A stretch of DNA of 32,000 nucleotides from Ruminococcus albus 7 = DSM 20455 (GCF_000179635.2 NC_014833.1:2520001-2552000), one strand, 5' to 3'. Positions 6,050 through 22,920 are shown, numbered from the stretch's first letter. Program-made: numbers and translations. The notes: generated by a model from the sequence alone, not told the origin.

Positions 6050-6094
6050 AAAAATCACCTCCGTGATCGTAACACGATACACTTTATCTATTCT

Positions 6095-6123
6095 ATTATA
6101 CCCTATATCAAACAAAATTGCAA
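6095..6123 (-). promoter_or_regulatory. SigA-type promoter of the AAA-ATPase gene
   Basis: The minus strand reads TTGCAA (6123-6118), 17 nt, then TATAAT (6100-6095), about 45 nt upstream of ATG 6049. Confidence 0.5.
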
Positions 6124-6182: not shown

Positions 6183-7820
6183 TTACTTCTCTACCGCCAC
6201 ATTCATTTCATGCCCATCCTTGAAGATGATCTGCACCTCGTTCTTGGACAGTACCCTGATAACCTCAATGACCTTGCGGACGGTCACATCGTCATATTCG
6301 GCAAGGTGGCAGTCATGACGGCGCAGCTCCTCACCGACAGCCATGAGAGCGTATTTCTTCTCATCACTCAGCTTGGCTTTGGTCTGCATATCGTCAAGCT
6401 GGGTTTTCAGGTAGGCTTCCTCGTCGTTCAGGCTCTCAAAGTTTTTGTCGAGGGCATCTTCATCGACTGCACCGCTTGTGATCTGACGGACAAGTGAATC
6501 CCTCTCGTCCTCTATTTCTTCAAGGCGTTTCTGTATTTTGGCAGTCTGTTTCTGCATATCGCCATTGTCGCCGATGACAGCAAGGATATTCTGCTCCATT
6601 CGGGCAAGCATATCGCCGTTTCGGGAATAGACAGCGTTCAGAGCCTTGACGATAGCATTTTGCAGGCTTTCTTCGCTGATTGAGGGAGAATGTTTGCAGT
6701 ATTTACTGCCGTGATCGAGCCTGCTGATACACCGCCACACGATACGCTTGTGACCGTGTGAAGTCCATGTTACCCTTCGGTATGCCGTTCCGCACTCTCC
6801 GCATATTAGAATATCGGTCAGGGCGTATTTGCTTGAATACTGCCCCAATTCCGTCCTTGCCTTTGCAGAGCGTTTCTTGATCGCTCCACGCTTCGCAAGT
6901 TCCTGCTGAACACGATTATATGTATCACGGTCGATAATGGCAGGGTGGCAGTCATGAACGATGTACTTATTTTTCTCGCCGTTGTTCTTGACACGCTTGT
7001 GGGTGATGCAGTCGATGGTGTAGCTTTTTTGGAGGATTGCATCGCCTGCGTATTTCTCATTTTTGAGGATGAAATTCACATTCGCCCTGTTCCATGTTGA
7101 CGAACCGCTTCGGCGTTTGATACCCTCCGACTGCAATTGATCTGCGATGCCCTGCATACTCATACCGTCAAGAAACATGACATAGATACGGCGGACAATC
7201 TCCGCTTCTTCCTCCACTATATACGGCACACCGTCCTCGCCCATGCGGTAGCCGAGTGTCTTGTCGAGAACATACTTGACCTTGCCCTCACGGAAAGATT
7301 TCTCGATACCCCACGATACATTTTTGCTGATACTCTCGCTCTCTGCCTGAGCGAATGAACCATACAGCGATATGATAAATTCGCTGTTCATCATCATGGT
7401 GTTAATGTTCTCTTTCTCAAAAATAACGCCAATGCCGAGCAGTCTCAGTTCACGGATATATTCAAGACAATCCACAGTATTTCGGGCGAAACGGCTGATT
7501 GACTTGCACAGCACAAGGTCGATTTTCTTTTGCTGACACTTGCGTATCATCTTGTTGAACTGCTTGCGGTTCTTGGTCTGCGTACCGCTGATGCCCTCGT
7601 CTGCGAATATGCCTGCAAGCGTCCATTCGGGGTTGGAGTTGATGAGGTTCGTGTAGTATTCTATCTGCACCTGATAGCTGTTCGCCTGTTCCTCGCTGTC
7701 GGTGGATACACGGCAGTAGGCAGCCACACGAATTTGCCTGTATTTGGACTGTTTCAGCTCGGCAGGCGAGAGGGCAGGTATCATCGTAACATTGGAAGCC
7801 ATATCGTTATTCTTCGGCAT
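6183..7820 (-). CDS. Large serine recombinase (resolvase catalytic domain + recombinase domain + zinc ribbon + coiled coil)
   Basis: 545 aa. Catalytic region RVAAYCRVSTDSEEQANSYQVQ...SISRFARNTVD, zinc ribbon CGECGTAYRR...WRC...C, coiled-coil tail. AAGGAGG RBS 6 nt before ATG 7820. Overlaps the upstream gene by 14 nt. Confidence 0.9.
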   Translation of the reverse strand: MPKNNDMASNVTMIPALSPAELKQSKYRQIRVAAYCRVSTDSEEQANSYQVQIEYYTNLINSNPEWTLAGIFADEGISGTQTKNRKQFNKMIRKCQQKKIDLVLCKSISRFARNTVDCLEYIRELRLLGIGVIFEKENINTMMMNSEFIISLYGSFAQAESESISKNVSWGIEKSFREGKVKYVLDKTLGYRMGEDGVPYIVEEEAEIVRRIYVMFLDGMSMQGIADQLQSEGIKRRSGSSTWNRANVNFILKNEKYAGDAILQKSYTIDCITHKRVKNNGEKNKYIVHDCHPAIIDRDTYNRVQQELAKRGAIKKRSAKARTELGQYSSKYALTDILICGECGTAYRRVTWTSHGHKRIVWRCISRLDHGSKYCKHSPSISEESLQNAIVKALNAVYSRNGDMLARMEQNILAVIGDNGDMQKQTAKIQKRLEEIEDERDSLVRQITSGAVDEDALDKNFESLNDEEAYLKTQLDDMQTKAKLSDEKKYALMAVGEELRRHDCHLAEYDDVTVRKVIEVIRVLSKNEVQIIFKDGHEMNVAVEK

Positions 7821-8676
7821 TGTTAACCTCCTTGTATGCGATGCGCTTTCCGTTTCTGAACTCTATCGCTATAACCTTGTTTTCATCAACGGTTATTCTG
7901 CTTACGATCTGCAATAAAAGCTCCGTATCAATCGTTTCGGAAGGCTCATGTCCTGCAATCAGGTCTTGAAGCTCCTGCGTGATATACGGCTCTCTGCTGT
8001 ATGTGCAGGCGTTGTATTTCATGACTGCCAGCGCAAGCGTTTTCGACTTTATCAGCTCATATTCAATGGGCTGAACAGCACAGAGCTGAGATATTTCCTT
8101 TTCTGCCTGCCGTATTTCTTCGGTAGGCTCATACACAGTCAGAGGCGTACCTGTTTCAAGCATATCGGAATTACCGACAACATCGTTCATAATGCTCTGC
8201 ACCACCGACACGAAATAATCATCGGGAATCCTCGGCTTAAAGTTCGCACAGCCCTTACGAGTACACCGCCACCGTTTGTAGCCTGTCCTGTCGGAGAAAT
8301 GCACCATATTCGTACCGCACACGGTACAATAGGACAGCTTTTTCAGCACCGTGTAGGTATCGGGGACTTTCACTTTTTTGGCTGAGTTTCCGATATTTGA
8401 AGCGCCGAAAATGTCCTCCGAAATGATTGCAGGATAGCCGTCCGCACCGCAGTACCGCCCGTCACGGAGAATGCCGTACACCTTGTCGATAGCTTTTTTC
8501 TTATCCTCCGAGAAATAGGGTATCTGTTCATCATAGAGTGCTGCACCGATCTTACTGCCAGATAAGCCGTTTGCCTTTTCGTCAAAGATACGGCGGATTA
8601 TCTCGGCTTCACCAATATCAACAGCGATCCTGCCCTCTGCCCAAATGTAGCCGTAGGGGGTCTTTTTAATTGCCAT
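7807..8676 (-). CDS. Serine-recombinase-family protein lacking the N-terminal catalytic (resolvase) domain: recombinase domain + zinc ribbon only
   Basis: Begins directly with the recombinase-domain signature KKTPYGYIWAEGRIAVDIGEAEIIRRIF...SGSKIGAAL, then zinc ribbon CTVCGTNMVHF...WRCTRKGC. There is no S-x-x-Q/R catalytic segment. The track start 8703 is TTG; ATG 8676 (MAIKKTPYGY) is more likely. Confidence 0.75.
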   Translation of the reverse strand: MAIKKTPYGYIWAEGRIAVDIGEAEIIRRIFDEKANGLSGSKIGAALYDEQIPYFSEDKKKAIDKVYGILRDGRYCGADGYPAIISEDIFGASNIGNSAKKVKVPDTYTVLKKLSYCTVCGTNMVHFSDRTGYKRWRCTRKGCANFKPRIPDDYFVSVVQSIMNDVVGNSDMLETGTPLTVYEPTEEIRQAEKEISQLCAVQPIEYELIKSKTLALAVMKYNACTYSREPYITQELQDLIAGHEPSETIDTELLLQIVSRITVDENKVIAIEFRNGKRIAYKEVNNAEE

Positions 8677-10210
8677 TCCTATCCAACCTTTCTGTAAATT
8701 CAAGTCCGCTGGGCAGCCTGAAAGTCAGCGTATCGCCCGAAATGGTGATGCTCTCGACTGCTGTTTCAAGTATCTCCTTACGGGCTTCGGGAGTGCCGTC
8801 ATAGCCTTTGAAAAGCTCTGCAAGAGTTTCCATATCATCAATGGTCTTGTCCTTGTTCTCACTTGCCCTGTCCATACTGCGTGACAGGCTGCTGATCTGC
8901 ATATCAATTTCCGTGACCTCACGGTCATACTTCTCGGTGGTGATAAAGCGTTTTCTGTACAGCGTGGCGAGCCTGAGCTTCTGCTCTTTCAGGTCGGCAA
9001 TGGTTTTTAGCTGATTTGCTCCCTCTGCCGTACCGTATTCCATAAGTCTTTGAAGCTCCGTGAGCTGTGCATAGCACTTGCCGATGATCTCCGCATTATG
9101 GGTATGGAGCTTGTCGCACAGTGCTGTGAAAGCAGTCTGCAATTCATCAGCATATAAAACAGTGTTATTGCAGGGATTGCCGACATCGTAGCGATAACCG
9201 CATTGCCAATAATCACGCTTTTTGGAGCGTATCAGGGCATATGTGTGACCGCATTTTCCGCAAATCAGCTTCTTTCTGAATGGCGATTCGACCTTAGTGC
9301 TTTTCTGAGGTGTGGACGCTTTCCGCATATCCCTGACAAGGGCGAATTTCTCCTTGCTAATGATGGCAGGGTGGCTGCCCTCGATGTAATACTGCGGCAC
9401 CTGTCCCGAATTGGGAATGAACTTCTCACCCATGAATTTGGAGTAGGTTTTCTGCCAGAGTGTATCGCCGATATACTTCTCCTGTTCCAGAATGTTCAGC
9501 ACCGTCTTTTGATTCCACGCTTTACCTGTGGGTGAGGGTATGCCCTCATCGGTCAGAGTAAGAGCGATCTTCCTTGCACCCATTCCGCTGATATACATAT
9601 CGAATATCCTGCGGACGACCTCGGCTTTATCGGGTTCGATGATGAGCTTGCCTGTTTTCTTCTCTTTGGTGTAACCGTAGGGGACACGGCAATGCCCGAA
9701 CGTACCCGATGCCATTTTCTTTTGAATGCCCCAGCGGACGTTGTTGGATATGGACTGTGATTCCTCCTGCGCCAGACCGCCCATGACGGTTATCATCATT
9801 TCGTCCGATAGCCTTGCCGTGTCGATATTTTCTTTCTCAAATGCTATGGTGATGCCCAGCTCTTTCAGCTCTCGGATAGATTTCAGGCAGTCCTTAGTAT
9901 TTCGGGCGAAACGGCTGATAGACTTCGTGACGATACGGTCGATTTTGCCAGCCCTGCAATCCTCCATGAGCCTTTGAAACTCCACACGCTTATCCATGCT
10001 CGTCCCCGAAATGCCCTCATCTGCGTACACACCGACAAGCTCCGATGTCTCCGAACCTCTGTACAGGCTCGTGAAGTACCGCACCTGTGTTTCGTAGGAA
10101 TGCTCCTGATCGTCCTTGTTGCTCGATACTCTGCAATACGCAGCCACTCTGATACGTCCCTGCCTGATCTGCGACACGGCAGGGATCACTGTCATTTTCT
10201 TCATAAACAT
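8666..10210 (-). CDS. Large serine recombinase
   Basis: 514 aa. Catalytic region RVAAYCRVSSNKDDQEHSYETQ...SISRFARNTKD, recombinase domain PYGY...AEVVRRIF, zinc ribbon CGKCGHTY...WQC, coiled coil. AGGAG lies 3 nt before ATG 10210 and 9 nt before ATG 10204, so 10204 may be the real start. Confidence 0.9.
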   Translation of the reverse strand: MFMKKMTVIPAVSQIRQGRIRVAAYCRVSSNKDDQEHSYETQVRYFTSLYRGSETSELVGVYADEGISGTSMDKRVEFQRLMEDCRAGKIDRIVTKSISRFARNTKDCLKSIRELKELGITIAFEKENIDTARLSDEMMITVMGGLAQEESQSISNNVRWGIQKKMASGTFGHCRVPYGYTKEKKTGKLIIEPDKAEVVRRIFDMYISGMGARKIALTLTDEGIPSPTGKAWNQKTVLNILEQEKYIGDTLWQKTYSKFMGEKFIPNSGQVPQYYIEGSHPAIISKEKFALVRDMRKASTPQKSTKVESPFRKKLICGKCGHTYALIRSKKRDYWQCGYRYDVGNPCNNTVLYADELQTAFTALCDKLHTHNAEIIGKCYAQLTELQRLMEYGTAEGANQLKTIADLKEQKLRLATLYRKRFITTEKYDREVTEIDMQISSLSRSMDRASENKDKTIDDMETLAELFKGYDGTPEARKEILETAVESITISGDTLTFRLPSGLEFTERLDRNGN

Positions 10211-11278: not shown

Positions 11279-12652
11279 TCAGGTCGATATATATTTTATA
11301 GCGATACCTCTGAATCCTCTGACGGTCTTTCCACCTACTGAGATGTTATTGGTGTACTTGATGCTGAACTGGTCGCTGTTCTGCTTTACCCAGCTTGTGA
11401 AAGTGTCTCGCTTCAATGCCGTCAGAGCATTATCATCACACCATCGGTAATAACTGTCATATAGTGCCGCCGATGAAACGCACAGCTTTTCCCCATACAT
11501 CACCCTGTCCGTATCTTCCAGAAACTCCGTGATATTGCAGTTATCCTGCATAGTCTCCATGACGTTCTGCCTTGCCCTGTCGGATATCGTGAAGCGGTAA
11601 TTGTTGGCAAGCAGGCGGAGCAGTCCGTCATACATCCAGCAGAAAATCTTCTCTTTCTCAGCGATGAATTTCTCGGCGATATAGGGGTCAATAATTCGCC
11701 TTTCGGGCGGCGGCAGGGTGGTAAGGATTATCATTCGGCGTGAGAAGCCCTTGCTCTTGTCATAGAGCGTTTTGGGACTGCCGTTGCCGAAGCACAAAAG
11801 CCGTGTATACAAGAGCGCCTGTTCCGACTGCTTGCCCTTTGCTTCAACATCTATGGGCGTTTCGGCGGTGACGAGGTTCTTGATGTAACCCGTTGAGGAC
11901 AGCGCCTGCATTTGCATATCGTCATCTATCATAAGCAGACGGTCTTTCAGATTGTAGCGAAAAAAGCGGTCTGTCTCGATTCGGTGGATATTGCCCGTAA
12001 GCATATTATCCCTGAAAATCTCACGGAGTACGATGCCGATGCGAGACTTTCCCTCGCCGCCCTGACCTATGAGAAACATCATCTTTTGCCCTTTCGTGGA
12101 GGGTATCAACAGATAGCCGAGATATTCCTGCAAAGTGACCACATCTTCCGGTGTGAGCAGTTCCAACAGAAACGTCATGAACTGTTCGGGATAATAAGCA
12201 CCGTTTCGGATATTCGGGTCATAGCAGATGTTCAGGCGGTTGGTGCAGAACTCCCTGTTGGGATAGAAGTTCCCTTGGAGGTCCAGCTTTCCGTTCTGAA
12301 CATGGATAAAGTTCATGTCGGGCGGTATAGGCTCGCTGTATGTATAGAGCCTGAGCGCGTCCATTATCTGCACGACTTTCTTTGACAGCCCTATCCACAC
12401 ACCCAGACGGAGCATACGATAGACCTCGTTGCCGAGTGCGTTCTCGTCCACAAGTCCGTCATAATCGAAGAACCGTCCGCCGATGCATTTCATAGGGTGC
12501 TTCTGCGTGAACAGCTTGCAGAATTTCAGCTCATTAACGGTGGTCTTGTCCAGCATCCAATCGGGAAGCTCACGCTCTTTCTTCTTTTCAGGTGAAACGG
12601 TTGCCGAGGCATTCTCCCCATTCTTCGATACATCGTTTGTATTCTCGTTCAA
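11279..12652 (-). CDS. Phage/plasmid primase-helicase, P4-family C-terminal / D5-like SF3 NTPase
   Basis: 457 aa. Walker A FLIGQGGEGKSRIG and Walker B RLLMIDDD, with the overall layout of P4 alpha / D5-type proteins. TTG start at 12652 has GGAGGT 8 nt upstream. Overlaps the zinc-finger gene by 65 nt; an alternative ATG is at 12556. Confidence 0.8.
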   Translation of the reverse strand: MNENTNDVSKNGENASATVSPEKKKERELPDWMLDKTTVNELKFCKLFTQKHPMKCIGGRFFDYDGLVDENALGNEVYRMLRLGVWIGLSKKVVQIMDALRLYTYSEPIPPDMNFIHVQNGKLDLQGNFYPNREFCTNRLNICYDPNIRNGAYYPEQFMTFLLELLTPEDVVTLQEYLGYLLIPSTKGQKMMFLIGQGGEGKSRIGIVLREIFRDNMLTGNIHRIETDRFFRYNLKDRLLMIDDDMQMQALSSTGYIKNLVTAETPIDVEAKGKQSEQALLYTRLLCFGNGSPKTLYDKSKGFSRRMIILTTLPPPERRIIDPYIAEKFIAEKEKIFCWMYDGLLRLLANNYRFTISDRARQNVMETMQDNCNITEFLEDTDRVMYGEKLCVSSAALYDSYYRWCDDNALTALKRDTFTSWVKQNSDQFSIKYTNNISVGGKTVRGFRGIAIKYIST

Positions 12653-13202
12653 TCCTGTCTACCTCCGTTTTTATTTCTTCCTGTTGCTCTTTGTCGAAAC
12701 GATTGAACGTTTCAAGCATATACTCCGCATAGCCGATATTCTGCAAAGCGTATACGAAACGCCTGTCCGTTTCATCATCGGGAGAAGTCGGAACATAAAG
12801 CATTTTGTACTTGTCCAGCAAAGTAAAATACCTGAGCAGAACATCATACATATGCTCCGCCCTTGCTTTCTCTGCCTTACGCTCGGCGATCTCCCTGCGC
12901 CGTCTGTTGACTTTCTCCATATCCGGTGGCTTGTCCACGTCCAGACCAAGTGCAAAATCGCTGTTGAGCTGTTTCACCGCTTCGATAGATGACAAGCCGA
13001 AAAGCTCCTGCACCAGCTTGATAACATCGCCGTGTGCCTGACAACCGAAACAGTAATAGTGGTCATCATACAGCTTGCAGGACGGGTGACGCTCCCTGTG
13101 GAATGGACAGAGCGCCATGTTTCCTCGGTGGACTTCCACGCCGTAACTGCGGGCGGCGGTGGGTACGTCCACAAGCTCTTTTACTTCATCAAATATTGTC
13201 AT
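12588..13202 (-). CDS. CHC2 (DnaG-type) zinc-finger protein
   Basis: CPFHRERHPSCKLYDDHYYCFGCQAHGDVIKLVQELFGLS is a CHC2 primase zinc finger. AAGGAGG lies 7 nt upstream of ATG 13202 (MTIFDEVKEL), which I prefer over the track start 13235. Confidence 0.8.
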   Translation of the reverse strand: MTIFDEVKELVDVPTAARSYGVEVHRGNMALCPFHRERHPSCKLYDDHYYCFGCQAHGDVIKLVQELFGLSSIEAVKQLNSDFALGLDVDKPPDMEKVNRRRREIAERKAEKARAEHMYDVLLRYFTLLDKYKMLYVPTSPDDETDRRFVYALQNIGYAEYMLETFNRFDKEQQEEIKTEVDRIEREYKRCIEEWGECLGNRFT

Positions 13203-13239
13203 TAAAAGACCTCCTTCACATACAGCCTTTTTCACCCCA

Positions 13240-13265
13240 AAAGTTGTACGAAAACGTACAACTTT
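13240..13265. promoter_or_regulatory. Perfect 11-4-11 palindrome AAAGTTGTACG-aaaa-CGTACAACTTT (candidate operator or 5'-UTR hairpin)
   Basis: Read directly from the sequence. It lies 38 nt upstream of the CHC2 gene start, in the divergent intergenic region. Confidence 0.5.
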
Positions 13266-13300
13266 AAATAAAATATGTTTTTATTAAATTAAAAATCATA

Positions 13301-13338
13301 TGTTATCACAAAATGAGAGCCTGCATTTTGTGATAACA
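13301..13338. promoter_or_regulatory. Perfect 15-8-15 palindrome TGTTATCACAAAATG-n8-CATTTTGTGATAACA (candidate operator)
   Basis: Read directly from the sequence. It ends 22 nt upstream of the -35 of the STAND gene promoter. Confidence 0.5.
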
Positions 13339-13359
13339 GCACAGCACATTTCCCGATAC

Positions 13360-13388
13360 TTGAAATACATATCGCTTTGTGCTATAAT
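13360..13388 (+). promoter_or_regulatory. Near-consensus extended -10 promoter of the STAND gene
   Basis: TTGAAA (13360-13365), 17 nt, then TGcTATAAT (13380-13388). ATG 13422 follows with GAAAGGCGG upstream. Confidence 0.6.
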
Positions 13389-13421
13389 GTATATTGGATA
13401 ATTATTGAAAGGCGGCTATCT

Positions 13422-15950
13422 ATGTACAAGTTCTGCGACTTTCAGTCTGTTACCAAATTGCTGTACAGTGGGCTGATAAAATCTACGATCAAATCATATA
13501 ACGTAATGATGAGCGACCTTTTTGGTGCATATAACGCCGCTGAAAGAAAACAGGCGTTTACAAGCAGTGAGCTTTCACGTCTGGGCAACGGTAAGCGTGT
13601 GCCGTCAAAAACGTGGGTAGACTTCTATCAGCGGAATGATAAGTCTGTCATGATCGCAGATATTATGAGCATTATTCCAAATATCGTAGATAAAACATCA
13701 ATGCAGAAAGCACTGTTTGAGCTTTACACCAACGACAGATTTATCCCCGATGATTATATGCAGATATTTTTATCAAGCCATAAACCTGAATATTCCGATG
13801 ATAACGCACTTGCGGAACTCATTTATGATGTTCTGTTCATTTCTATCGTCCGTCCTTATGAAGAAAAAACAAAGGAATGTTTTGTAGTTATACCCTTTGA
13901 TGTTTCCGAGAATGAAGTTCCGTTTACAGATCAGAAAGCCGATGTACTGCCCACTGTAAACATAAAATCTCCGGAATCGCCTGACACATTGTTCGCCAAC
14001 AGCGAATATGTACCGCCGTGTCCGCATTTCTGCGGTTATGCGTCTGATATTGATGACCTGAACACAATGTTTGCAAAGGACAACAAGCTGTTTGTGACAG
14101 GCTATCCCTGTGTTGGCAAAAGTGAGTTTGTTCGTGCTTATATTGAGAAATACCGTTCCCAATATAAGAAAATCGGTTATTATTTTTACAGCGGCAGCCT
14201 GCGTTCGATCATTGCAAATATGAACTCGGATATGCCTGTATCGCTGAGTGATACAAATAACGCTCTCTACATAAGCAACCTTAATATTCTCCACACACTT
14301 GATGAAAGCACCCTTATCGTTATTGACAATTTCAACGTCGGCATTGAAGATGATGAATGTGCGGACGATATTCTCAAACTGAAATGCAGGGTCATCTTTA
14401 CTTCACGCAGGCGATATGAGGGAGTGACTACATTCAAGCTAAATGGTATTTCCAAGAATGACGGAATGGAGCTTGTAGAAAAGTTTTTTGACAACCCCAC
14501 GCCTTTAGCTGAACATAGGCTTAAGGGCATTGTCAGTATGCTCGGAAGAAATCCTCTTTTCATAGAAATAGTCGGCAAAATGCTGATAAAGGGCGGCTGT
14601 ACAACCGAAAGATTAGATTTTGAGCTTCTCGCCGGAGACTATTCCAAATTTGATCAAAAAGTAACCTTCACAAAAGATGGAAAACTCATGAAAGAGTCTC
14701 TTATCGGTGTTCTGAGAAATATGTTCGGATTTTCTGAACTCTCGGAGGTTCATCGCAAGGTTCTGTGTATGATGCACGTTGCAGTAGAAGCCCCCATACG
14801 AAAAGATGCAGCAATAGCCATGTTTGGGATTAACAGCGTTCAGCCGATAGACGATCTGATCGACGCAGGTTTTGTATCGGAAACTTCAAACGGCATGATA
14901 CAGATGAGCCATTTCATATCGGAGATTGTTTTCAGCGCCCTGAAACCCGACAAGAATATCTGCCGTGAGCTGATAGACCGAATCAGGCTTATCGGAAAAG
15001 ATGAAAGTATTCAGTGCGATTTCGGCGATATAAGAAATATCATAGCTGAGTTTGCATTTTTCCCCATAGTAAAGCCTGACACTGAAGCCGTGGAGGTCGC
15101 CTTCGACTGTTTCAAATTCTTTTGGCGTATCCATGATATTGAACGTATGGAAGAACTGAATGAGAGAACCTTTACCCTTCGTGGATTGACAGAGCCGAAA
15201 CAGCTTGCGATACAAGAACTGGAAGAAGCCGCTATCGAAGCCGAAAAGAGAAATTATGTCAAGGCATTGGAATTTCAGAAAAACGCCATTGAAAAAATCA
15301 TGGCACTTGATGATGAATATCTGAAAGCAGAAGCTGTAAGCAGCTATGCCTATTACCTTGAATATTCGGAAACGGCTGATTCCACCGAAGAATTATATGA
15401 AGCCTACCAAAGAGGTATAGAACTGTTTGAAGGTCTTGAACTTGATAACGGCGGCAAAGTGGAACAATGCCGTATCATCACCCGTTATGCCTACTTGCTC
15501 CTCATGACCTGTAAAACAGATGAAGCACTTGCGTGGGCTGATAGAGCCGTTAATACACTTGCAAATCTCAGACCAAGAACTGTACCCAGATATGAGTCTT
15601 TTGCCGATGCGCTATATGTCGGAGGGCTGTGCCATTTGCTTAAAAATGATGATAAAATCGCAAAATTTGAACTGGACAGGGCTTTCCGCATATACTTAAT
15701 GGATCACAAAAGAGAATCCGATTTCATCGAAGACAAGCTCGAATGGGTATTCAATTTTGCCTTAGATGTGGACTCTGATATTATGGAAACGAAGCCTTTG
15801 AAATATCTGTTTGAGGTTGAAGATGATTACGATGATGACCTTGATGATGACGATCTGATCGATGACGATGAAGAGTTCTTCCTTGATCCCGATGCCTTTA
15901 CAGAAGATGAGGACACCGATAAATCCGACTCATCAGATGAAATCGAATAA
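13422..15950 (+). CDS. STAND-class P-loop NTPase (NB-ARC-like) with TPR-like C-terminal repeats, unassigned N-terminal domain and poly-acidic tail
   Basis: Walker A GYPCVGKS, Walker B TLIVIDNF, RVIFTSRR sensor-like motif, a helical repeat region, and a C-terminus where 27 of the last 45 residues are D/E. The track start 13377 (TTG) lies inside the promoter, so I use ATG 13422 (842 aa). Confidence 0.75.
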   Translation: MYKFCDFQSVTKLLYSGLIKSTIKSYNVMMSDLFGAYNAAERKQAFTSSELSRLGNGKRVPSKTWVDFYQRNDKSVMIADIMSIIPNIVDKTSMQKALFELYTNDRFIPDDYMQIFLSSHKPEYSDDNALAELIYDVLFISIVRPYEEKTKECFVVIPFDVSENEVPFTDQKADVLPTVNIKSPESPDTLFANSEYVPPCPHFCGYASDIDDLNTMFAKDNKLFVTGYPCVGKSEFVRAYIEKYRSQYKKIGYYFYSGSLRSIIANMNSDMPVSLSDTNNALYISNLNILHTLDESTLIVIDNFNVGIEDDECADDILKLKCRVIFTSRRRYEGVTTFKLNGISKNDGMELVEKFFDNPTPLAEHRLKGIVSMLGRNPLFIEIVGKMLIKGGCTTERLDFELLAGDYSKFDQKVTFTKDGKLMKESLIGVLRNMFGFSELSEVHRKVLCMMHVAVEAPIRKDAAIAMFGINSVQPIDDLIDAGFVSETSNGMIQMSHFISEIVFSALKPDKNICRELIDRIRLIGKDESIQCDFGDIRNIIAEFAFFPIVKPDTEAVEVAFDCFKFFWRIHDIERMEELNERTFTLRGLTEPKQLAIQELEEAAIEAEKRNYVKALEFQKNAIEKIMALDDEYLKAEAVSSYAYYLEYSETADSTEELYEAYQRGIELFEGLELDNGGKVEQCRIITRYAYLLLMTCKTDEALAWADRAVNTLANLRPRTVPRYESFADALYVGGLCHLLKNDDKIAKFELDRAFRIYLMDHKRESDFIEDKLEWVFNFALDVDSDIMETKPLKYLFEVEDDYDDDLDDDDLIDDDEEFFLDPDAFTEDEDTDKSDSSDEIE

Positions 15951-16685
15951 CCTCAGCAGCACATCAATCACCACAGCAACAGGTGCGGCATAGTACAAAA
16001 CATCGCCAATCGTTCTGACGGTGCAGAAACGTTTTACTGACTTGCTGATTTGCTCGGAAGCATTTTCCGCCGCCGCTGTTGCCGATCTCACGCTGTTGGT
16101 GCAGGAAGTTATATCCTTCTCCATCTGATCGCTGTTTGCCTGCACATACTGCATCAGCTCGTTGATGGCTTCTTTCTCCTGCGCTTTGACCTGATGATAG
16201 ATGTTGTAAACACTGTCAGAGACCTCTGTCCTGACGCTTTTTGCGTACTGCTCTTGCAGGCTCAGGTTCTGCATCTGATGTTCGGACAACCTTTGTATTT
16301 CGGCGTTTATAGCTGTCGAATAGTTCTTCAAAAGTTGGCACATCTTTAGCGTTGCCGTTACCAGAAGAAGGACTCTCTCGTCCCTCTGTGCGTCCACTGA
16401 CGATACTCCGATCTCCTCCGCCATTTCCCGAACTCTCGTTTCGATTGCGTCCAGTTCCGGCAAAGGTGCTGCCTGTTTCTTGGTTTCCATTGGTCTTACC
16501 CCCTGTCTCTGTGCCTTGTGTGATTGTTCGTACTCCCTGTGGATACGCTCCGCTTCTTTTATCATCTGTTCCCGTGTAAAGACCGCCGTTTGCTGTTTGT
16601 GTTCTGTCTGCGGTTCTTGTACTGTCGGCGGTGAGGGCTTCGGCTCTGTCGGCTTCTTGCCCTCGCCAAATCTTGGTAAGCTCAT
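15933..16685 (-). CDS. Coiled-coil protein with C-terminal hydrophobic (tail-anchor-like) segment; overlaps the relaxase 3' region out of frame
   Basis: 250 aa. AAAGGA lies 7 nt upstream of ATG 16685. It has a Pro/Lys-rich linker, then helical heptad-like sequence, and ends GDVLYYAAPVAVVIDVLLRLFDFI. The 3' 283 nt (15933-16215) are covered by no other minus-strand ORF. Confidence 0.55.
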   Translation of the reverse strand: MSLPRFGEGKKPTEPKPSPPTVQEPQTEHKQQTAVFTREQMIKEAERIHREYEQSHKAQRQGVRPMETKKQAAPLPELDAIETRVREMAEEIGVSSVDAQRDERVLLLVTATLKMCQLLKNYSTAINAEIQRLSEHQMQNLSLQEQYAKSVRTEVSDSVYNIYHQVKAQEKEAINELMQYVQANSDQMEKDITSCTNSVRSATAAAENASEQISKSVKRFCTVRTIGDVLYYAAPVAVVIDVLLRLFDFI

Positions 16686-17502
16686 ATTTGATTCCTTTCA
16701 CTGTATATTTGTCACCCAGCTTACTGCCCCTGACCGAGACAAGTTTACCGTTCTTATCGGTATAATTCGGGTGACGGTAGGATATAGTGTTGCCCTTGAC
16801 ACGGCATTCCACATGATAATGCTTCATCAGGGCATTGACCACATCTTCTAAAGTTTTGTTGTTCGAGTCGGCGCACTCGATACGAATGACTTCCCGAAGT
16901 TCATCTTTGAATGTTTCCTTACCCTTAGCTTTCATCTGCTTCTCGGCAAAGGTTTCCTTGTCACGGTCGGGATCATCGTTATAATAATCCTTACGGACAG
17001 AGTGTACAAGCCCTCGCTTCATGCACTGCTCCCCGAAAAATTCGCACATGGTCTGCAAATCTTTCTGACTGCGGCGGTATGCCTTGCCTGTGACGGTGTG
17101 GCAGTTGCCCAGAAGAAAATGGACGTGCTTGTGCGGTTTGTCGGTGTGAACGGCAAACATGACCTGATAGCCGTCAAAAAACTTCTCGGCGAACTCCTTT
17201 GCAATGTTAAACACTTCTTCATAGGTCAGCTTGTCATTATCATCGGGAGAGAACGACAGCGACATCTTGAACGCAAGGTTCGTCCGCTTGTTATCACGCT
17301 TGCCGAACAGCTTTCGTGTGGTGAGAATGTCACAAGAATAAATGTTGCGGTCGCAGTTCATCTCCCAGCACAAATGCGGCGCAGTTTTTATGACACCTGC
17401 CTGCTGCTGTTCGGGCAGCTCACCCAGCATATACCGTGAAGCCCGGTCAAGCTGTATCTGCGATTTGCAGGGTTTATAGTCCACATTGACATTTCCGTAC
17501 AT
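16216..17502 (-). CDS. MobA/VirD2-family relaxase (mobilization nuclease)
   Basis: The histidine triad region FAVHTDKPHKHVHFLLGN is typical of the relaxase/mobilisation nuclease domain. ATG 17502 overlaps the mobC stop (TGATG). The last ~155 codons are G/T/R/S-rich low complexity and overlap another ORF. Confidence 0.8.
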   Translation of the reverse strand: MYGNVNVDYKPCKSQIQLDRASRYMLGELPEQQQAGVIKTAPHLCWEMNCDRNIYSCDILTTRKLFGKRDNKRTNLAFKMSLSFSPDDNDKLTYEEVFNIAKEFAEKFFDGYQVMFAVHTDKPHKHVHFLLGNCHTVTGKAYRRSQKDLQTMCEFFGEQCMKRGLVHSVRKDYYNDDPDRDKETFAEKQMKAKGKETFKDELREVIRIECADSNNKTLEDVVNALMKHYHVECRVKGNTISYRHPNYTDKNGKLVSVRGSKLGDKYTVKGIKYELTKIWRGQEADRAEALTADSTRTADRTQTANGGLYTGTDDKRSGAYPQGVRTITQGTETGGKTNGNQETGSTFAGTGRNRNESSGNGGGDRSIVSGRTEGRESPSSGNGNAKDVPTFEELFDSYKRRNTKVVRTSDAEPEPARAVRKKRQDRGL

Positions 17503-17855
17503 CACTTAACGCCTTTAATGCTGAACTTCGGATTATCCAGAAATGCAAGAATCCGCTTCATGACGGCTTCATTGGTAATTCGGATAGCCCCGATCTCGGC
17601 TCTGACCTTATCGTCCTGCCCGATGTTGGAATAGTAAGCAAGCTGATTGAGGTTCGTGCCGATCTTGCGAATCTCGTGGATAAGCGGTGCGATGTCATCT
17701 GCCACGCTGTAGATCCTGACTTCGCTGTCCCTGATTGCTTGCATCAGATAGTCGGTCTTGCTCAGTCCGCTTGTTTCATGCTTGGTATTCCAGAGCTGAA
17801 GCTCCTCGTCGGTCAGTTTCAGACTGATCGAGTGATAGCGCTTTCTGTTTATCAT
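17502..17855 (-). CDS. mobC: MobC-family relaxosome accessory protein
   Basis: 117 aa. ISLKLTDEELQLW...GLSKTDYLMQAI...IRKIGTNLNQLAYYSN is the MobC (bacterial mobilisation protein) pattern. It sits directly upstream of the relaxase. Confidence 0.8.
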   Translation of the reverse strand: MINRKRYHSISLKLTDEELQLWNTKHETSGLSKTDYLMQAIRDSEVRIYSVADDIAPLIHEIRKIGTNLNQLAYYSNIGQDDKVRAEIGAIRITNEAVMKRILAFLDNPKFSIKGVK

Positions 17856-17868
17856 TTTTATCCTTTCT

Positions 17869-17975
17869 CCGCCTGCGGCGGTCTTAGGGGAAGGTCTCGG
17901 AGGGGGAACGTCTCTGAGCAGGGAGACCGATGTGTCACTACATCGGTGCTACCTGCCCGGCGCAATCCGACGGGT
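17869..17975 (-). other. Candidate oriT (cluster of GC-rich inverted repeats upstream of mobC)
   Basis: CCGCC-tgc-GGCGG (17869-17881), GGTCTC...GAGACC (17893-17928) and CCGATGT-gtcact-ACATCGG (17927-17946). The call rests on position relative to mobC and the relaxase only; no nick site was identified. Confidence 0.35.
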
Positions 17976-18214
17976 CACGGTCCTGTTATTACAAGACATC
18001 ACGGCGATAAGCCGTTTTTTCATAAGCAATTCGCTCCGCCGATTGCGTTCGAGTCTGCAAATTCCTCTGTGATATTTGCAGGCTTTCTCTTTTCGCATAA
18101 AATGCTATCGGGCATTTTTGCGTTATATCCCCGATTTTTCCACCGTCTATTGGTTTGTTGCTGTTGTTGTAACACTCCGATATATGTACGGCGGTAAAGC
18201 TGTTTCAAGCAGTA

Positions 18215-18676
18215 TCAGCCGCCGATAAAATCGAAATCAATACCGGAATAATCATCATTTTCGCTGTTATCAGCGTTGCCAAAGCCCTCCGCGGCGCTCG
18301 GATTGCCGCTCACGGCATATCCTCTGCTGTCCATTGTTCCCATGGGAACAGCTCGAATCTCATTGAACTGTACAGGGTAACTGCTGTTCAGACTCAGCAT
18401 CAGACTTGCGAGAAACTTCGGCATTTCGGCGATAAACGCCTTGCCTACCTCGCTGACGATCTGCTGAATGAAACGCTCCTCACGCTGACGGGTCTCGAAA
18501 TACGGGTCATCAGCCAGTTTTCCCATACGGTCAAAGTAGTCATTGACCGCCGTAATGGCTGCAACATTGGTGGACTTGATCTTGTCCTTATCATAGTTAT
18601 GAAGATAGTCCCAGGCTTTGGCGTGTTCGGGGTTATCCATATTGAAGCGGAAACAAGTAGTCAGAACCTTGCTCAT
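18215..18676 (-). CDS. ParR-like centromere-binding adaptor candidate (RHH-like N-terminus, acidic C-terminal tail)
   Basis: 153 aa, translationally coupled to parM (ATGA overlap at 18673-18676), with an AAGGAGGAG RBS. The N-terminus TCFRFNMDNPEHAKAWDYL fits a ribbon-helix-helix pattern, and the C-terminus is NSENDDYSGIDFDFIGG. The assignment rests on position and shape only. Confidence 0.5.
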   Translation of the reverse strand: MSKVLTTCFRFNMDNPEHAKAWDYLHNYDKDKIKSTNVAAITAVNDYFDRMGKLADDPYFETRQREERFIQQIVSEVGKAFIAEMPKFLASLMLSLNSSYPVQFNEIRAVPMGTMDSRGYAVSGNPSAAEGFGNADNSENDDYSGIDFDFIGG

Positions 18677-19596
18677 TTCTTCTCCTCCTTTTTAAGCTGT
18701 GCAACGGCGAAATATTCATAGCCCTTTGCAGAAGCCTTAATGTCCTCGATGATAGTTACTCTATCCTTATCATAGTTTCCGAAATTTTTGATGAGCTTTC
18801 CTCCGCCGCCCGTGATGTAAAGGCGCATCATTTTCGGGTCATATTCATACTTGCGGAGCAGAGCAAAAATGCTCTCGGCGTATTCGGAAATTGCCTGTCT
18901 GAGAACCTCGGCATACTCGCTGTCAATGTCGGCAGTTCCGTAACGGATCATCGACTGGATAATGGTCTCGTCAACGGTCACGCCCAGCTTGTTCATCATA
19001 GCATTGGACGCAGCCTTTACGCACTGGTTCACGCCCATTTTCTCGGTGTAGGTTTTGGTGTTGATGACACGCTTGTTGCTGACGAAAATGATGTTGACCG
19101 TTCCGTTGCCGATGTCTGCAATCATGCTGAGACCTGTCATATCGTTCAGCTTGTCCACCACGGCAGCGTAGCCCTGCGGATACACATAGCAACCGATGAT
19201 GCGGACGGAGTAGAGCTTGTCCTCGTATTTGAAGTCCACGCTCTCCCTCTGCAACATATACTTGCGGAAATCCTCACGCTGTCTGCCTACCCAGGTGATC
19301 GGCAGTCCTACAGCGAGGTAAATCTTAGCCGAGGTGATGCCCTCTTGGTTCAGCTCACGGGCGATACCCATAAGCGTGAAGATGTAGTTGTCATCGTCCT
19401 GCCACTTGTCGGCAAGATACTCCTTGTGTCCCTCACCGATCTGATAGTAGTTCCCTTCAAAGAAAAGAGTATTTTTCGTAAAGGTCGGTGCGGCATCGAG
19501 CTTGGTGATGCCTGTGGGCGTGACCGTGTTGGCGGTCTTGATGTTGCCGTAACCGTGGTCGATGCCCACGATCAGGAAGTCGTTATAGTGTTTCAT
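18673..19596 (-). CDS. parM: ParM/StbA-family actin-like segregation ATPase
   Basis: 307 aa. Actin-fold phosphate motifs VGIDHGYGNIKT, ADIGNGTVN and YITGGGG. GGAGGA RBS upstream. Confidence 0.8.
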   Translation of the reverse strand: MKHYNDFLIVGIDHGYGNIKTANTVTPTGITKLDAAPTFTKNTLFFEGNYYQIGEGHKEYLADKWQDDDNYIFTLMGIARELNQEGITSAKIYLAVGLPITWVGRQREDFRKYMLQRESVDFKYEDKLYSVRIIGCYVYPQGYAAVVDKLNDMTGLSMIADIGNGTVNIIFVSNKRVINTKTYTEKMGVNQCVKAASNAMMNKLGVTVDETIIQSMIRYGTADIDSEYAEVLRQAISEYAESIFALLRKYEYDPKMMRLYITGGGGKLIKNFGNYDKDRVTIIEDIKASAKGYEYFAVAQLKKEEKK

Positions 19597-19690
19597 TGGT
19601 ATTCCTCCAATCTTTTTATTCAGTCATTCGGATAGCTGTGCGCTGTCCTTTGGCTGTAATTTTAGTATAGCACAGATCGGCTCTCAGTGG

Positions 19691-19755
19691 GTTGACAACA
19701 ACCTGACAAGAACCTGACAAAACAGGTTTGTCAATTCTGTCAACTTTGTCAGGTC
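19691..19755. repeat. parC-like array of TTGACA/ACCTGACAA repeats in direct and inverted orientation
   Basis: GTTGACAAC AACCTGACAAG AACCTGACAAAAC AGGTTTGTCAA TTCTGTCAAC TTTGTCAGGTC, 95-160 nt upstream of parM. An extended -10 (TGCTATACT, minus strand, 19672-19664) lies between the array and the gene. Confidence 0.5.
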
Positions 19756-19899: not shown

Positions 19900-20439
19900 T
19901 CATATTCTGGCTTTGATTTCTCCATTTCTCTTTGCGTCCATGTATATTTCTTTGAAATCAGCTTTGCTGTTCGGACCGAATATGATCGGCATAACAGATA
20001 CCAGGCCATCGGAAATGATCGCATTTTTAAATGGCAGAAGCGCTGCATCAAGCAAAGTTGGCATCGGTGCATTTCTCAGCATTTCCTCCCAACTGCTGAC
20101 AATGCCGTTTACAAGAAAAACAGAATTGTCATCGATCGATATAAATACCGATCCCTTTTTCCAATGTCGCTCAATGATAAATCTGCCGGTGATGCACCCT
20201 TTCCAGCTTTTAAGTATCTCCATGTGTTCTTCGGGCAGATCCGATCGCTCAAGATAATCATCAATGATCCATGTCCGTTCCCATAAAAAGTGGGCAACCT
20301 CCGCAGCGTCCTGTGGGTCGATCATTCCTTGCCCGAAATAATCTTCCTCAGGAAGTATATGATATTCTCTGTTCACATAGTCAAGCAGTGGAAAAAACAG
20401 TTCATAAAACAGCTTTGCATCTTCATTACTAAGTTTCAT
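19900..20439 (-). CDS. Hypothetical protein (179 aa) encoded inside the IS66 element downstream of tnpC
   Basis: GGAGGGAAG RBS embedded in the last codons of tnpC, with an 11-nt overlap. The ORF ends 47 nt before the terminal inverted repeat. No motif recognised. Confidence 0.6.
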   Translation of the reverse strand: MKLSNEDAKLFYELFFPLLDYVNREYHILPEEDYFGQGMIDPQDAAEVAHFLWERTWIIDDYLERSDLPEEHMEILKSWKGCITGRFIIERHWKKGSVFISIDDNSVFLVNGIVSSWEEMLRNAPMPTLLDAALLPFKNAIISDGLVSVMPIIFGPNSKADFKEIYMDAKRNGEIKARI

Positions 20440-21940
20440 TTTCTTCCCTCCATGGTAATAATATCGTCCCCGCAGGCTGTGAAAACAGCTCGGTCAGGTA
20501 TTTCTCAGCATCAACACCGTTCGCCTGTGCAGTTGAAATGATCGAATACAGCGTTGCACTTGATCTGGCTCCGTTTGCTGTATTTGAAAACAGCCAATTT
20601 TTTCGGCCTAACGCAAACGGTCTTATTGCGTTTTCGGCTCTGTTGTTGTCGATAGGCACGTCTCCGTTTTCAAGAAACGTGTAAAGATATTTCCGTTCAT
20701 TCAACGCATATCTTACTGCATCTGTCAGCTTGCCCTTACCACTGACCTGAACATTTTCAAGCCACGCAAAAAACTCGTCAAGCAAAGGCTTTACCTTCAC
20801 AAGGCGCTGTTTATATCTGTATTCTGTGGAGCTGTCGGCAAGCAGATTTTCTTCGTGATATATCTTGTTGAAATATTCTACTGCCTTTGCCGCAACAGAA
20901 GTGCTGTGCAGCTTTTGGTCGTTCGGAAGAGCCTGAATAAAACCACGCCTTGCATGAGTCATACAGCCGCATCGCTTAGCACCCTCGACTGCATTGTAGG
21001 CATCGTATCCGTCACAGATAAGATAGCCGATAAATCCTTTCAGGAAATTCGAGGCGTGCTCACCCTTTCGTGTCGGCTGATAATCGAAAATGATGATGCT
21101 CCTGTCATTCATTTTGCCGTTGCAGTAGACCCACATTCTTGATGTCGTGGTAGGCTTTCGGCCTTCCTCGTGAAGCACCTGAACGGTCGTTTCATCGGCA
21201 TGGATCATCTGCCCTGCGATAAGCGTCTCATGCATTTTCTCCACAATCGGCAAACACCATTTTTCGGCAGCAGTGCCTACCCAATTAGACATAGTCGCTT
21301 TGAGCAGAGGTATGTTTTTGGAATTAAAGTCCTTTTCCTGACGGTGCAGAGGTACTGACTTTGCATATTTTTCGTAGATGATATGAGCCAGAAGTTCGGG
21401 AGAGCAATAGCTTCCCGGGATCATAGCGTGAGGATATGGCGCACGGATGATATGACAAGGTTCGTCCCTTTCTTCGGGCTTTTCTCCGCACTCGGGACAC
21501 TTGTACTTATGTACTATATGCCTGCGGATATGATATTTTGGCGGCGTAAATATAAGTTCATCGTAAGCCTTTTCGGGAGTCAGTTCTTCCATTTCGGCGC
21601 CGCATATTTCGCATACCGGGTTGTCAATTTTGTGATGTTCTTCTTTTACAGGCAGATTGTTCATCCATTCATCGTGAGTGCGTTTTTTCTTGCGCTTGTG
21701 TTCGGGAACAGTAATTGTTTCGGCAGATTTAGCTGCGGATTTTTCTTCATTGTTTCCGAACATGGAAAGCTGAACACCGAACTCCTTTTCCATAACAACA
21801 GATGTCTGCTCTGTTTTTCTTCCGAATATCTGCTTTCTGAACCACGCTAACTGCTGATTGGCAAGTGCTAGTTCTTCCTTGAGAACAGCGTTTTCATTAC
21901 GGAGCGATACAATTTCCGATGTCATATTTGGTTCGGACAT
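20429..21940 (-). CDS. tnpC: IS66-family transposase TnpC
   Basis: N-terminal leucine-zipper-like region NAVLKEELALANQQLAWFRKQIFGRKTEQ, zinc-finger cysteines (CEICG...CPECG), and a DDE region (ADETT...CDGY...NRAEN). GGAGGGG precedes ATG 21940, which I prefer over track start 22006. Confidence 0.9.
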   Translation of the reverse strand: MSEPNMTSEIVSLRNENAVLKEELALANQQLAWFRKQIFGRKTEQTSVVMEKEFGVQLSMFGNNEEKSAAKSAETITVPEHKRKKKRTHDEWMNNLPVKEEHHKIDNPVCEICGAEMEELTPEKAYDELIFTPPKYHIRRHIVHKYKCPECGEKPEERDEPCHIIRAPYPHAMIPGSYCSPELLAHIIYEKYAKSVPLHRQEKDFNSKNIPLLKATMSNWVGTAAEKWCLPIVEKMHETLIAGQMIHADETTVQVLHEEGRKPTTTSRMWVYCNGKMNDRSIIIFDYQPTRKGEHASNFLKGFIGYLICDGYDAYNAVEGAKRCGCMTHARRGFIQALPNDQKLHSTSVAAKAVEYFNKIYHEENLLADSSTEYRYKQRLVKVKPLLDEFFAWLENVQVSGKGKLTDAVRYALNERKYLYTFLENGDVPIDNNRAENAIRPFALGRKNWLFSNTANGARSSATLYSIISTAQANGVDAEKYLTELFSQPAGTILLPWREENET

Positions 21941-22032
21941 AAAGCACCCCTCCGTTCGTGATGATACTTTAATGATACCACGAAAAGAGGGGCTTTTCAA
22001 GCACATATTCTGAATATTCGGTAAGTATTGCC

Positions 22033-22700: not shown

Positions 22701-22920
22701 ACCTGTTACCTCCTTGTCTAATCGTCTCCAATGAACTCCATGGATCAATTTGGATTATTCAATTTACTTCATGGTGTTCCTTGGAGTTTATTATACTTTA
22801 TTAGACTTCGGTGGGGTAGGTGCTGGGGGTTATACGCTTACGGTTATACGCTTACGAGGGCTATTTAATGTGTGGTAGCAGGGCAGGGTAACTTTGATCC
22901 CACCGGAATCAAAGTTGACA

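Follow-up and report, generated by a model that had tools for sequence, protein, structure and literature searches.

Here we analyze a 32,000-nucleotide (nt) stretch of DNA from Ruminococcus albus 7 = DSM 20455 (GCF_000179635.2, NC_014833.1:2520001-2552000; hereafter the window, with positions counted from its first letter), centering on the gene at 13422-15950, which encodes a STAND NTPase. The window is an integrative mobilizable element (IME) of a kind carried by Ruminococcus and its relatives among the Clostridia of gut and rumen, and the STAND gene looks like a backbone regulator of this IME family rather than a cargo defense gene. We consider it probable that the protein is a transcription factor gated by a ligand and ATP, that it binds DNA through a domain of a new kind, and that it controls partition and mobilization of the element. 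The central observation is that, in alignments of related elements, the sequence of three repeats upstream of the ParM operon co-varies with the N-terminal domain of the STAND protein and with no other backbone protein or STAND domain. The features that bear on this argument are as follows.

13360-13388, plus strand: STAND promoter, with -35 TTGAAA (13360-13365), a 17-nt spacer and an extended -10 TGcTATAAT (13380-13388).
13407-13415, plus strand: ribosome-binding site (RBS) GAAAGGCGG, read from the sequence, 6 nt before the ATG at 13422.
13422-15950, plus strand: STAND (NB-ARC/TPR) NTPase gene, an open reading frame (ORF) of 842 amino acids (aa) starting MYKFCDF, assigned from 58 homologs and from AlphaFold/Foldseek matches to STAND proteins.
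13422-13901, plus strand: N-terminal domain (N-domain), aa 1-160, a candidate new DNA-binding domain, from AlphaFold, a family profile and co-variation with the promoter repeats.
14016-14456, plus strand: nucleotide-binding domain (NBD), aa 199-345, from alignment invariants and from homologs above the NB-ARC threshold.
14457-14957, plus strand: ARC/winged-helix region, aa 346-512, from AlphaFold secondary structure and Foldseek alignment to Apaf-1, CED-4 and 6mfv.
14958-15812, plus strand: TPR-like helical-repeat sensor region, aa 513-797, from helices at 515-797, Foldseek and TPR_12 in homologs.
15813-15947, plus strand: disordered poly-acidic tail, with D or E at 27 of the last 45 residues; predicted disordered and lineage-specific.
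19664-19672, minus strand: extended -10 TGcTATACT of the ParM operon, with no recognizable -35.
19693-19725, minus strand: three 11-bp-phased direct repeats with TTGTCA cores at 19720-15, 19709-04 and 19698-93, the proposed operator of the STAND N-domain.
19724-19753, minus strand: upstream arm of three inverted copies (TGACA, ~9-bp spacing), present in window-type elements only.

In the window, 20 nt separate the end of the last repeat unit from the ParM -10, and 23 nt separate the end of its TTGTCA core from it; a terminator at 19895-19869 isolates the promoter from what lies further upstream. No further copies of the TTGTCA repeat occur in the window beyond chance. In each of the 24 loci examined, the triple repeat is in the same register with respect to the -10. 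Its core sequence differs from one STAND type to the next; loci are numbered L001 and so on, and the identities listed are those of the STAND protein.

TTGTCA: the window, L001/2, L016 and L102; 86-100% to the window protein.
TGCCAAC: nine loci; 90-99% among themselves and 27% to the window protein.
CTAC: L004/5; 44% to the window protein.
GAACAAC: L006, L018 and L111; ~32% to the window protein.
GTGCAAG: L104/5; ~31% to the window protein.
TGCAAC: L017, L019 and L041; ~30-32% to the window protein.

Cargo directly abuts the repeats at six or more different junctions among the nine TGCCAAC loci. Across 21 non-redundant loci, repeat identity correlates with protein identity most strongly in the N-domain (Mantel r, 0.90), followed by NBD-ARC (0.85), the TPR region (0.82), unk153 (0.72; the product of the gene after parM) and ParM (0.65). 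These values are all inflated by shared ancestry, so it is the discordant cases that carry the argument. L006 and L104/105 share 87-91% DNA identity over ~10 kb with two exceptions: L006 nt 4448-4904, corresponding to STAND codons ~12-164, and all DNA upstream of the ParM -10. Their N-domains are only 49-51% identical, compared to 96% for NBD-ARC and 83% for the TPR region, and their repeats differ. The reverse is found when L006 is compared to L018/L111: the N-domains are 91-93% identical and the repeats 97% identical, with only 55% identity in NBD-ARC and 57% in the TPR region. In L004 versus L022/27/31, both arcs around the STAND gene retain 86-92% DNA identity, the STAND gene and the repeats are both different, and homology ends at the ParM -10. 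Finally, L018 and L105 are homologous on both sides of the repeats, and all three units have changed in concert.

The same picture emerges at the level of single residues. We called a position type-diagnostic if its residue is the same throughout a repeat type and changes from one type to the next (types A, B and C); 41 of 170 N-domain positions qualify, compared to 0 each in unk153, ParM, NikA, the relaxase and CHC2. We rejected unk153 as the repeat-specificity factor, given that it has no diagnostic positions and is 95-96% identical across loci with different repeats (96% between L005 and L098, for example). The type-specific residues of the N-domain cluster most at aa 41-50 and 60-61, in the area of the stretch SELSRLGNGKRVPS, which hints at a likely recognition region there. 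An earlier note on this DNA, made from its sequence, had described a weak XRE-helix-turn-helix (HTH)-like segment at this point. Those exact 20 residues do align by hhalign to helix 3 of a small XRE alignment, with a probability of 1.6%, which is not significant; we therefore rejected XRE-HTH homology, and what survives of that observation is the location.

More distant relatives repeat the arrangement with a different layout. In ~60 such loci, the STAND gene lies between an integrase gene and ParM-unk153-NikA-relaxase. Their repeat core reads TCAAT (ATTGA in the opposite sense), and the -10 before ParM, TAGAAT, comes after a further 20 nt. Of 16 loci, 13 have the triple repeat no more than 250 nt upstream of ParM. 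In 43 of 60 loci, another copy, in the opposite orientation, precedes the STAND start by at most 300 nt and in most cases by 18-30 nt. Across ~1 Mb, this triple repeat is matched only 77 times. Where cargo has entered between STAND and ParM, each repeat copy stays with its own gene. Where the type-specific region falls, the N-domains of this group share a conserved motif, GLVCRW-NG-AK-SP. The copy in the 5' untranslated region (UTR) of these STAND genes suggests autorepression.

The N-domain itself resembles nothing that we could find, and to this extent the earlier note, which had left the N-terminus unassigned, was right. The AlphaFold model of the domain (predicted local distance difference test score, pLDDT, 82) consists of nine helices and a terminal beta hairpin. 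Foldseek found no match in the PDB (best E 2.3) or in BFVD (best E 0.88), a profile of the domain matched no PDB sequence, and Pfam searches with 13 members at E up to 10 returned nothing, including no GerE, Trans_reg_C or BTAD. Nor was a toxic-class effector (nuclease, protease, TIR, SIR2 or pore) recognized in aa 1-160 by Pfam, PADLOC, PDB or BFVD. A profile search of 1.84 billion representatives recovered 520 clusters (at 50% identity), in which the domain is essentially always N-terminal in full-length proteins of ~740-800 aa, is conserved as one unit down to ~20% identity, and is never exchanged for another N-terminus. The best-conserved residues are D6, F7, F34, W54, G57, Y69, D90, L101, D105, S109 and R144; the window protein has L54 and P109. 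The family proteins are unnamed in every source searched. Standalone N-domain proteins were considered and rejected: the short matches are fragments, and the two that we looked up are split or decayed genes. The nearest relative outside the family, P0058, is a TIR-NB-ARC-TPR protein in which TIR replaces the N-domain, and its genomic context is unrelated.

The STAND gene is part of the element's backbone. We compiled an unbiased sample anchored on CHC2 (CHC2 of at least 74% identity and enough upstream DNA; n=24 metagenomic loci), and in all 24 a STAND gene with the N-domain lies divergent from CHC2, two of the 24 being split. The slot is also the same in relatives whose STAND proteins are 88%, 44% and 31% identical, even though the integration genes vary (three serine recombinases in one case, a tyrosine integrase or one serine recombinase in others), as does the cargo (a giant protein; methyltransferase/ResIII/SMEK; or HATPase_c_3/Z1/DUF4420/AIPR). 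In 80 genome loci from Ruminococcus flavefaciens (83-86% identity), other Ruminococcus, Oscillospiraceae and Lachnospiraceae, one flank of the STAND gene is a CHC2-primase or integrase gene, always divergent, and the other is either relaxase-NikA-unk153-ParM (convergent) or ParM-unk153-NikA-relaxase (co-directional). Variable and defense-like cargo is found beyond ParM, away from the STAND slot. No relatives were found in the plasmid collection and they are nearly absent from the phage collection; the only exceptions in the two are an unannotated 4.4-kb fecal fragment and two distant Haliscomenobacter TPR proteins.

Within this fixed slot, genome comparisons show the STAND gene to be a swappable module, the flanking proteins being far more conserved. 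L004 is 86% identical to the window in the primase, 90% in CHC2 and 95% in ParM, but only 44% in STAND; L024 is 93% identical in the relaxase, 97% in NikA and 92% in ParM, but 28% in STAND. Because the STAND gene is split or truncated in L117, L118, L008-L010 and L153-L156, with one 565-aa truncated form on >20 contigs, the proposed switch appears to have been lost or degraded in some element lineages.

These observations suggest the following mechanism. The N-domain would be a new sequence-specific DNA-binding domain that reads the triple repeats. By analogy with MalT, AfsR and GutR, the STAND protein would be made constitutively from its strong promoter and rest as a closed monomer, and a ligand on the TPR region together with bound ATP would lead to oligomerization. 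At least three N-domains could then cooperate in binding the promoter, which has no -35, at positions near -38, -49 and -60. Binding would turn the partition and mobilization operon on or, less likely, off; we favor activation of the ParM operon because the target promoter lacks a -35. Frequent replacement of matched N-domain/repeat pairs would give co-resident related elements private switches that do not cross-talk, an exchange that we would liken to that of phage immunity regions.

Several observations count against this mechanism. We infer DNA binding by the N-domain only from co-variation; the domain has no DNA-binding fold recognizable by Foldseek, the XRE alignment is not significant, and the domain is acidic overall (median pI 5.2). 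The decisive discordant cases come from about four recombination events, and every backbone protein correlates somewhat with repeat identity via shared ancestry. It is possible that factors encoded in the cargo read the repeats. In window-type elements no repeat copy lies near the STAND promoter, and autoregulation is unsupported there. The window protein itself departs from the family consensus at W54L, S109P and R206Y and in a shifted MHD-like histidine.

The location of the repeats raises the possibility that they are the centromere or incompatibility determinant of the ParM system, with the STAND protein serving as a segregation or copy-control factor and not as a transcription switch. In the type II partition system of plasmid R1, the parC iterons lie upstream of parM, and the repeats here lie directly upstream of parM as well. 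Their 11-bp phasing, the three direct plus three inverted copies of the window type, and the way that type-specific pairs would avert incompatibility among related elements all fit such a role. The constant spacing of 20 nt from the -10, at a promoter that has no -35, is however the geometry of a promoter and not of a centromere. The repeats number only three, a second copy at the STAND 5' UTR in distant relatives fits regulation, and the position of ParR is already taken by unk153, which follows parM and has a conserved acidic C-terminal peptide. For the same reason we rejected the STAND protein as a ParR-type adaptor, although the iteron position upstream of parM fits. We regard the centromere explanation as unlikely.

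Could the protein instead be an element-borne, Avs-like immune NLR, in which a protein of a phage or other invader is recognized by the TPR region, and abortive infection is set off by the N-domain acting as a new type of toxic effector or adaptor? The earlier note had raised two possibilities, an Avs-like defense sensor carried as orphan cargo and a ligand-sensing switch acting on the palindromes at 13240-13338. The STAND and TPR architecture, the Foldseek matches to Avs3 and AVAST5, and the TIR in P0058 in place of the N-domain are all compatible with immunity, as are the fast divergence of STAND relative to its flanking genes and the defense-like cargo of related elements. Defense and non-defense STAND clades are moreover interspersed (10.64898/2026.01.04.697583). 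In contrast, PADLOC returned only P-loop-level matches for the window protein and five relatives (E 1e-2 to 1e-4), the N-domain has no effector fold and is never swapped for another effector in ~520 clusters, and the TIR relative lies outside this element context. The STAND gene sits in a fixed backbone, with defense cargo at another site beyond ParM, and the sensor is only ~285 aa, compared to the sensors of at least 400 aa covered by the defense survey. An effector role would also leave the co-variation of the N-domain and the promoter repeats unexplained. We consider an immune NLR decidedly unlikely as the main role, though defense is possible as a second function of the STAND protein. The orphan-cargo description thus gives way to a slot occupied in all 24 CHC2-anchored loci, and of the two earlier proposals it is the switch that we favor, with a different target: the palindromes are absent from L001 and L112, which are of the same type, and do not co-vary with the protein, whereas the repeats at the ParM promoter, ~6 kb away, do.

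The least probable explanation, which we judge very unlikely, is historical linkage, with the N-domain contacting a protein partner (an integrase, relaxase or helper-element protein) and another factor binding the repeats: the small number of recombination events (about four), the variable cargo bordering the repeats, and an acidic N-domain with no recognizable DNA-binding fold speak for it, but the co-varying segments are parted on either side by conserved arcs (86-92% DNA identity), the cargo junctions vary within a STAND type and the repeats do not, type-diagnostic residues occur in no other backbone protein, and between L018 and L105 all three units changed together inside homologous flanks.

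The analysis confirmed the gene product as an NB-ARC-type STAND NTPase with a TPR-like region. The lead-in FCGYASDIDDL (aa 203-213) is followed by the Walker A motif GYPCVGKS (aa 227-234, nt 14100-14123), in which G227, G232, K233 and S234 are invariant in the family alignment; the Walker B motif TLIVIDNF (aa 297-304, nt 14310-14333), with conservation of 100% at D302 and 96% at N303; and a sensor-1-like RVIFTSRR (aa 323-330, nt 14388-14411), with T327 conserved at 94% and R329 at 84%. This Walker B is a DN variant and not DD, and hydrolysis may be slow. In profile searches, the window protein itself scores below threshold against Pfam (AAA_22 E 0.065, NPHP3_N E 0.11) and NCBIfam (FxSxx_TPR E 1.6e-5, 23.6 bits versus a cut-off of 300), matches PADLOC mad8 over the P-loop span only (E 0.006), and has no match among PDB sequences. 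Its homologs P0056, P0058 and P0052, linked to it at E 1e-35 to 1e-45, pass the NB-ARC gathering score (32.3, 28.6 and 26.4 bits; cut-off 23.5), and many homologs also match AAA_16, nSTAND1, NACHT and TPR_12. A full-length AlphaFold model built from a 20-sequence alignment (pLDDT 80) matches 6mfv (E 8.5e-13), Apaf-1, Avs3, CED-4 and plant resistosomes in Foldseek, all with probability 1.0.

The family consensus for the MHD-like motif in the ARC region is LHP, at ~80%; the window has MSH at 495-497, with the histidine one position off, and the P0034 group lacks it. The TPR region matches Rap, RapI and KLC TPR proteins in Foldseek. Mean pairwise identity within the family is 45% in the NBD, 36% in the ARC, 28.5% in the N-domain and 23% in the TPR region, the most divergent part. 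The acidic tail is restricted to the window clade and one further lineage, P0075; that it serves as an autoinhibitory DNA mimic is speculation, which would become more plausible if the N-domain binds DNA. On the plain architecture of the gene, the reading from sequence holds throughout: the 842-aa ORF at 13422-15950, the order and positions of the STAND/NB-ARC motifs (which fall on invariant alignment columns), the TPR-like distal third, and the count of acidic residues at the end were all described correctly.

The STAND promoter is of the sigma-70 type and near-consensus, as had been noted, with 11 of 12 matches plus the TG. A TTG at 13377 was considered as start codon and rejected, as it falls within this promoter. 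The promoter is nearly base-identical in relatives with only 27-44% protein identity; because it is conserved whatever the STAND type, it is probably not autoregulated by type, and in window-type elements it is probably constitutive. Homologous promoters carry an inverted repeat over the -10 (13366-13388 in the window), TATAGC-N5-7-GCTATA, which in the window reads TATCGC...GCTATA. We rejected TATAGC-N5-GCTATA as a type-specific operator because it is conserved irrespective of STAND type; the inverted repeat could be another factor's site or serve a divergent promoter. All of the Pfam-annotated genes in the window lie on the minus strand, consistent with the earlier view that the STAND gene is the only convincing plus-strand gene. 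The remaining features of the window are listed here, those of the proposed target operon (15933-19596) first.

18673-19596, minus strand: ParM-like actin-like protein (ALP), from Pfam and synteny; target operon.
18215-18676, minus strand: unk153, 153 aa, after ParM, from synteny, with no Pfam match; target operon.
17502-17855, minus strand: NikA-like, from Pfam and synteny; target operon.
16216-17505, minus strand: MobA/VirD2 relaxase, from Pfam and synteny; target operon.
15933-16685, minus strand: orf250, 250 aa, from conservation, overlapping the relaxase; target operon.
13240-13265 and 13301-13338, no strand assigned: two palindromes in an optional intergenic insert, from the sequence; absent or degenerate in same-type relatives.
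12588-13202, minus strand: CHC2 zinc-ribbon gene, from Pfam; divergent replication gene.
11279-12652, minus strand: DUF5906 primase/helicase, from Pfam; divergent replication gene.
6183-10210, minus strand: three recombinase genes, two of them full large serine recombinases and the middle one of 298 aa with the Recombinase domain only.
4448-6115, minus strand: AAA-ATPase_like + PDDEXK_9 gene, in a low-GC patch (38-40%).
19900-22748, minus strand: insertion of the IS66 family, between the ParM promoter region and the giant ORFs; transposase 20429-22006, TnpB 22033-22389, HTH ORF 22383-22748 and an unassigned 179-aa ORF 19900-20439.
22967-25666 and 25780-31947, minus strand: two giant ORFs of 899 and 2055 aa, with no Pfam match and GC 37-41%.

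In unk153, the N-terminal ~95 aa are nearly invariant and the C-terminus holds the conserved acidic peptide DDYSGIDFDFIGG; the place of its gene after parM makes unk153 a candidate for a ParR-like adaptor. orf250 overlaps the last ~156 codons of the relaxase in another frame and 18 nt of the STAND 3' end, ends in a hydrophobic helix, and is missed by public gene calls. Its frame is better conserved than that of the relaxase C-terminus (55% versus 39% in L004; 52% versus 43% in L006), and in L048/L053 it is found at 31% identity (E 1e-22) with little or no match in the relaxase frame. It is probably a real overlapping gene, like mobB within mobA of RSF1010, or a frameshift product.

On the other side of the STAND gene, CHC2 probably starts at ATG 13202 and not at GTG 13235, because its homologs begin MTIFDEV with a GGAGG RBS (here 13210-13214). 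The insert with the palindromes spans ~100-140 nt (13236-13345 in the window); it is degenerate in L016, L026, L100 and L108 and absent from others, and the hairpin at 13301-13338 has a terminator-like score on the minus strand. In many relatives only ~81 nt separate CHC2 from STAND, leaving no room for a separate strong promoter for the replication/integrase operon. The three-recombinase layout is also seen in L001 and L016; in related elements of other STAND types its place is taken by a tyrosine integrase or by one serine recombinase. The gene at 4448-6115 has the recombinases on one side and host-like genes (response regulator, FAD oxidoreductase, FtsX) on the other, and is possibly the element end or separate cargo. 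L001 has no insertion at the position of the IS66 element and has a single 3374-aa ORF in place of the two giant ORFs, which are probably surface or adhesin-type cargo.

Bacterial STAND/NLR proteins are now mostly read as immune sensors. To our knowledge, few STAND transcription factors have been described (MalT, AfsR, GutR), and none that controls a mobile element; our literature searches turned up no STAND protein described as regulating an integrative and conjugative element (ICE) or IME. We considered IME_Rho_tet as this element and rejected it as a different one. A STAND transcription factor is in itself a known kind of protein; what appears to be new here is the domain proposed to bind DNA, the biological role of the protein and the modular way in which specificity is set. 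A wider claim, to which we give slightly less than even chances, is that these proteins form an undescribed class of NLR-like (STAND) master switches of mobile-element transfer, with a new DNA-binding fold, a private three-repeat operator, exchanged cassettes and many orthogonal types. The TPR region of such a switch may respond to a helper conjugative element, to a phage or to a cue from the host, and mobilization of the element would then be confined to times when a ride is available.

The family spans ~520 clusters (50% identity) from gut and rumen Ruminococcus, Oscillospiraceae and Lachnospiraceae, in elements that carry defense systems, adhesin-like giants and other cargo. If our interpretation is correct, the new DNA-binding domain comes with seven or more natural specificities, each a protein matched to its operator, and would provide a toolkit of orthogonal regulators for Clostridia. 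The system would also give a handle on the signal that triggers gene transfer in the gut microbiota. It would further offer a clean natural case of co-evolution between a modular regulator domain and its site, and would caution against annotating mobile-element STAND genes as defense by default.

Among the closest known systems are RapI-PhrI/ImmR of ICEBs1 and PrgX of pCF10: an element-encoded TPR-fold sensor decides the timing of transfer genes, as we propose here, with allelic specificity types and a sensor gene that lies opposite to, and converges with, the transfer operon. Foldseek matches the STAND protein to RapI (4i1a) and phage Rap, though the TPR similarity to Rap is generic. Unlike the STAND protein, these regulators have no NTPase, DNA is bound by a canonical XRE HTH or by a separate protein, and they sense secreted peptides encoded adjacently. 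No small ORF for a secreted peptide was seen between STAND and its converging neighbor, and the 266 nt that follow the STAND stop are part of that neighbor, which overlaps it. Membership in the RNPP family (Rap, NprR, PlcR, PrgX, AimR) was rejected given the NTPase, the non-significant HTH and the lack of a peptide gene. The Avs and bacterial NLR-like STAND proteins share the STAND NTPase, the C-terminal helical-repeat sensor (with Avs3 and AVAST5 as Foldseek matches) and carriage on mobile elements. They differ in that the protein here has no effector domain, no PADLOC match beyond the P-loop, a small sensor, a fixed slot and an N-domain paired with a promoter element.

In mechanism, the protein would resemble the STAND transcription factors. 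MalT, the activator of the E. coli maltose regulon and the prototype of these factors, oligomerizes and binds several asymmetric direct-repeat sites cooperatively, with the proximal site near -38, at promoters without a -35. By analogy, the logic proposed here (inducer and ATP, oligomerization, cooperative binding to direct repeats) would be the same; unlike the window protein, MalT has its NTPase at the N-terminus, a LuxR-type HTH at the C-terminus and a SUPR sensor, and is a chromosomal metabolic regulator. GutR, the glucitol activator of Bacillus subtilis, is compared here by its description: it is likewise a Firmicute protein of similar size, with the order HTH, NTP-binding and TPR. In contrast, it is a chromosomal sugar regulator and binds an inverted repeat; no named GutR-like protein was found among the homolog matches. 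According to one published account, MalT and GutR are both activated by inducer and then ATP (PMC10936776; GutR there after Poon et al. 2001).

AfsR and the large SARPs of Streptomyces have the same domain order, with an N-terminal DNA-binding domain (here a putative one), NB-ARC and TPR. AfsR/SARP sites are 11-bp-phased direct repeats that overlap or abut the -35, the target promoter has a poor -35, and activity is modulated by ATP (PMC10936776); 11-bp-phased direct repeats at a poor or absent -35 are thus common to both. The differences are several. Their DNA-binding domain is an OmpR-type winged helix with BTAD, compared to a domain here with no Trans_reg_C, BTAD or Foldseek match; theirs are two repeats, 8 bp from the -10, and here there are three, ending 20 nt from it; and theirs control antibiotic biosynthesis, whereas the protein here belongs to the backbone of a mobile element of Clostridia and would control partition and mobilization genes. 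Because it lacks GerE, Trans_reg_C, BTAD and Foldseek matches, and given the XRE probability of 1.6%, it is not a member of the MalT or SARP families; the STAND protein would thus work like the MalT and SARP regulators from outside their families.

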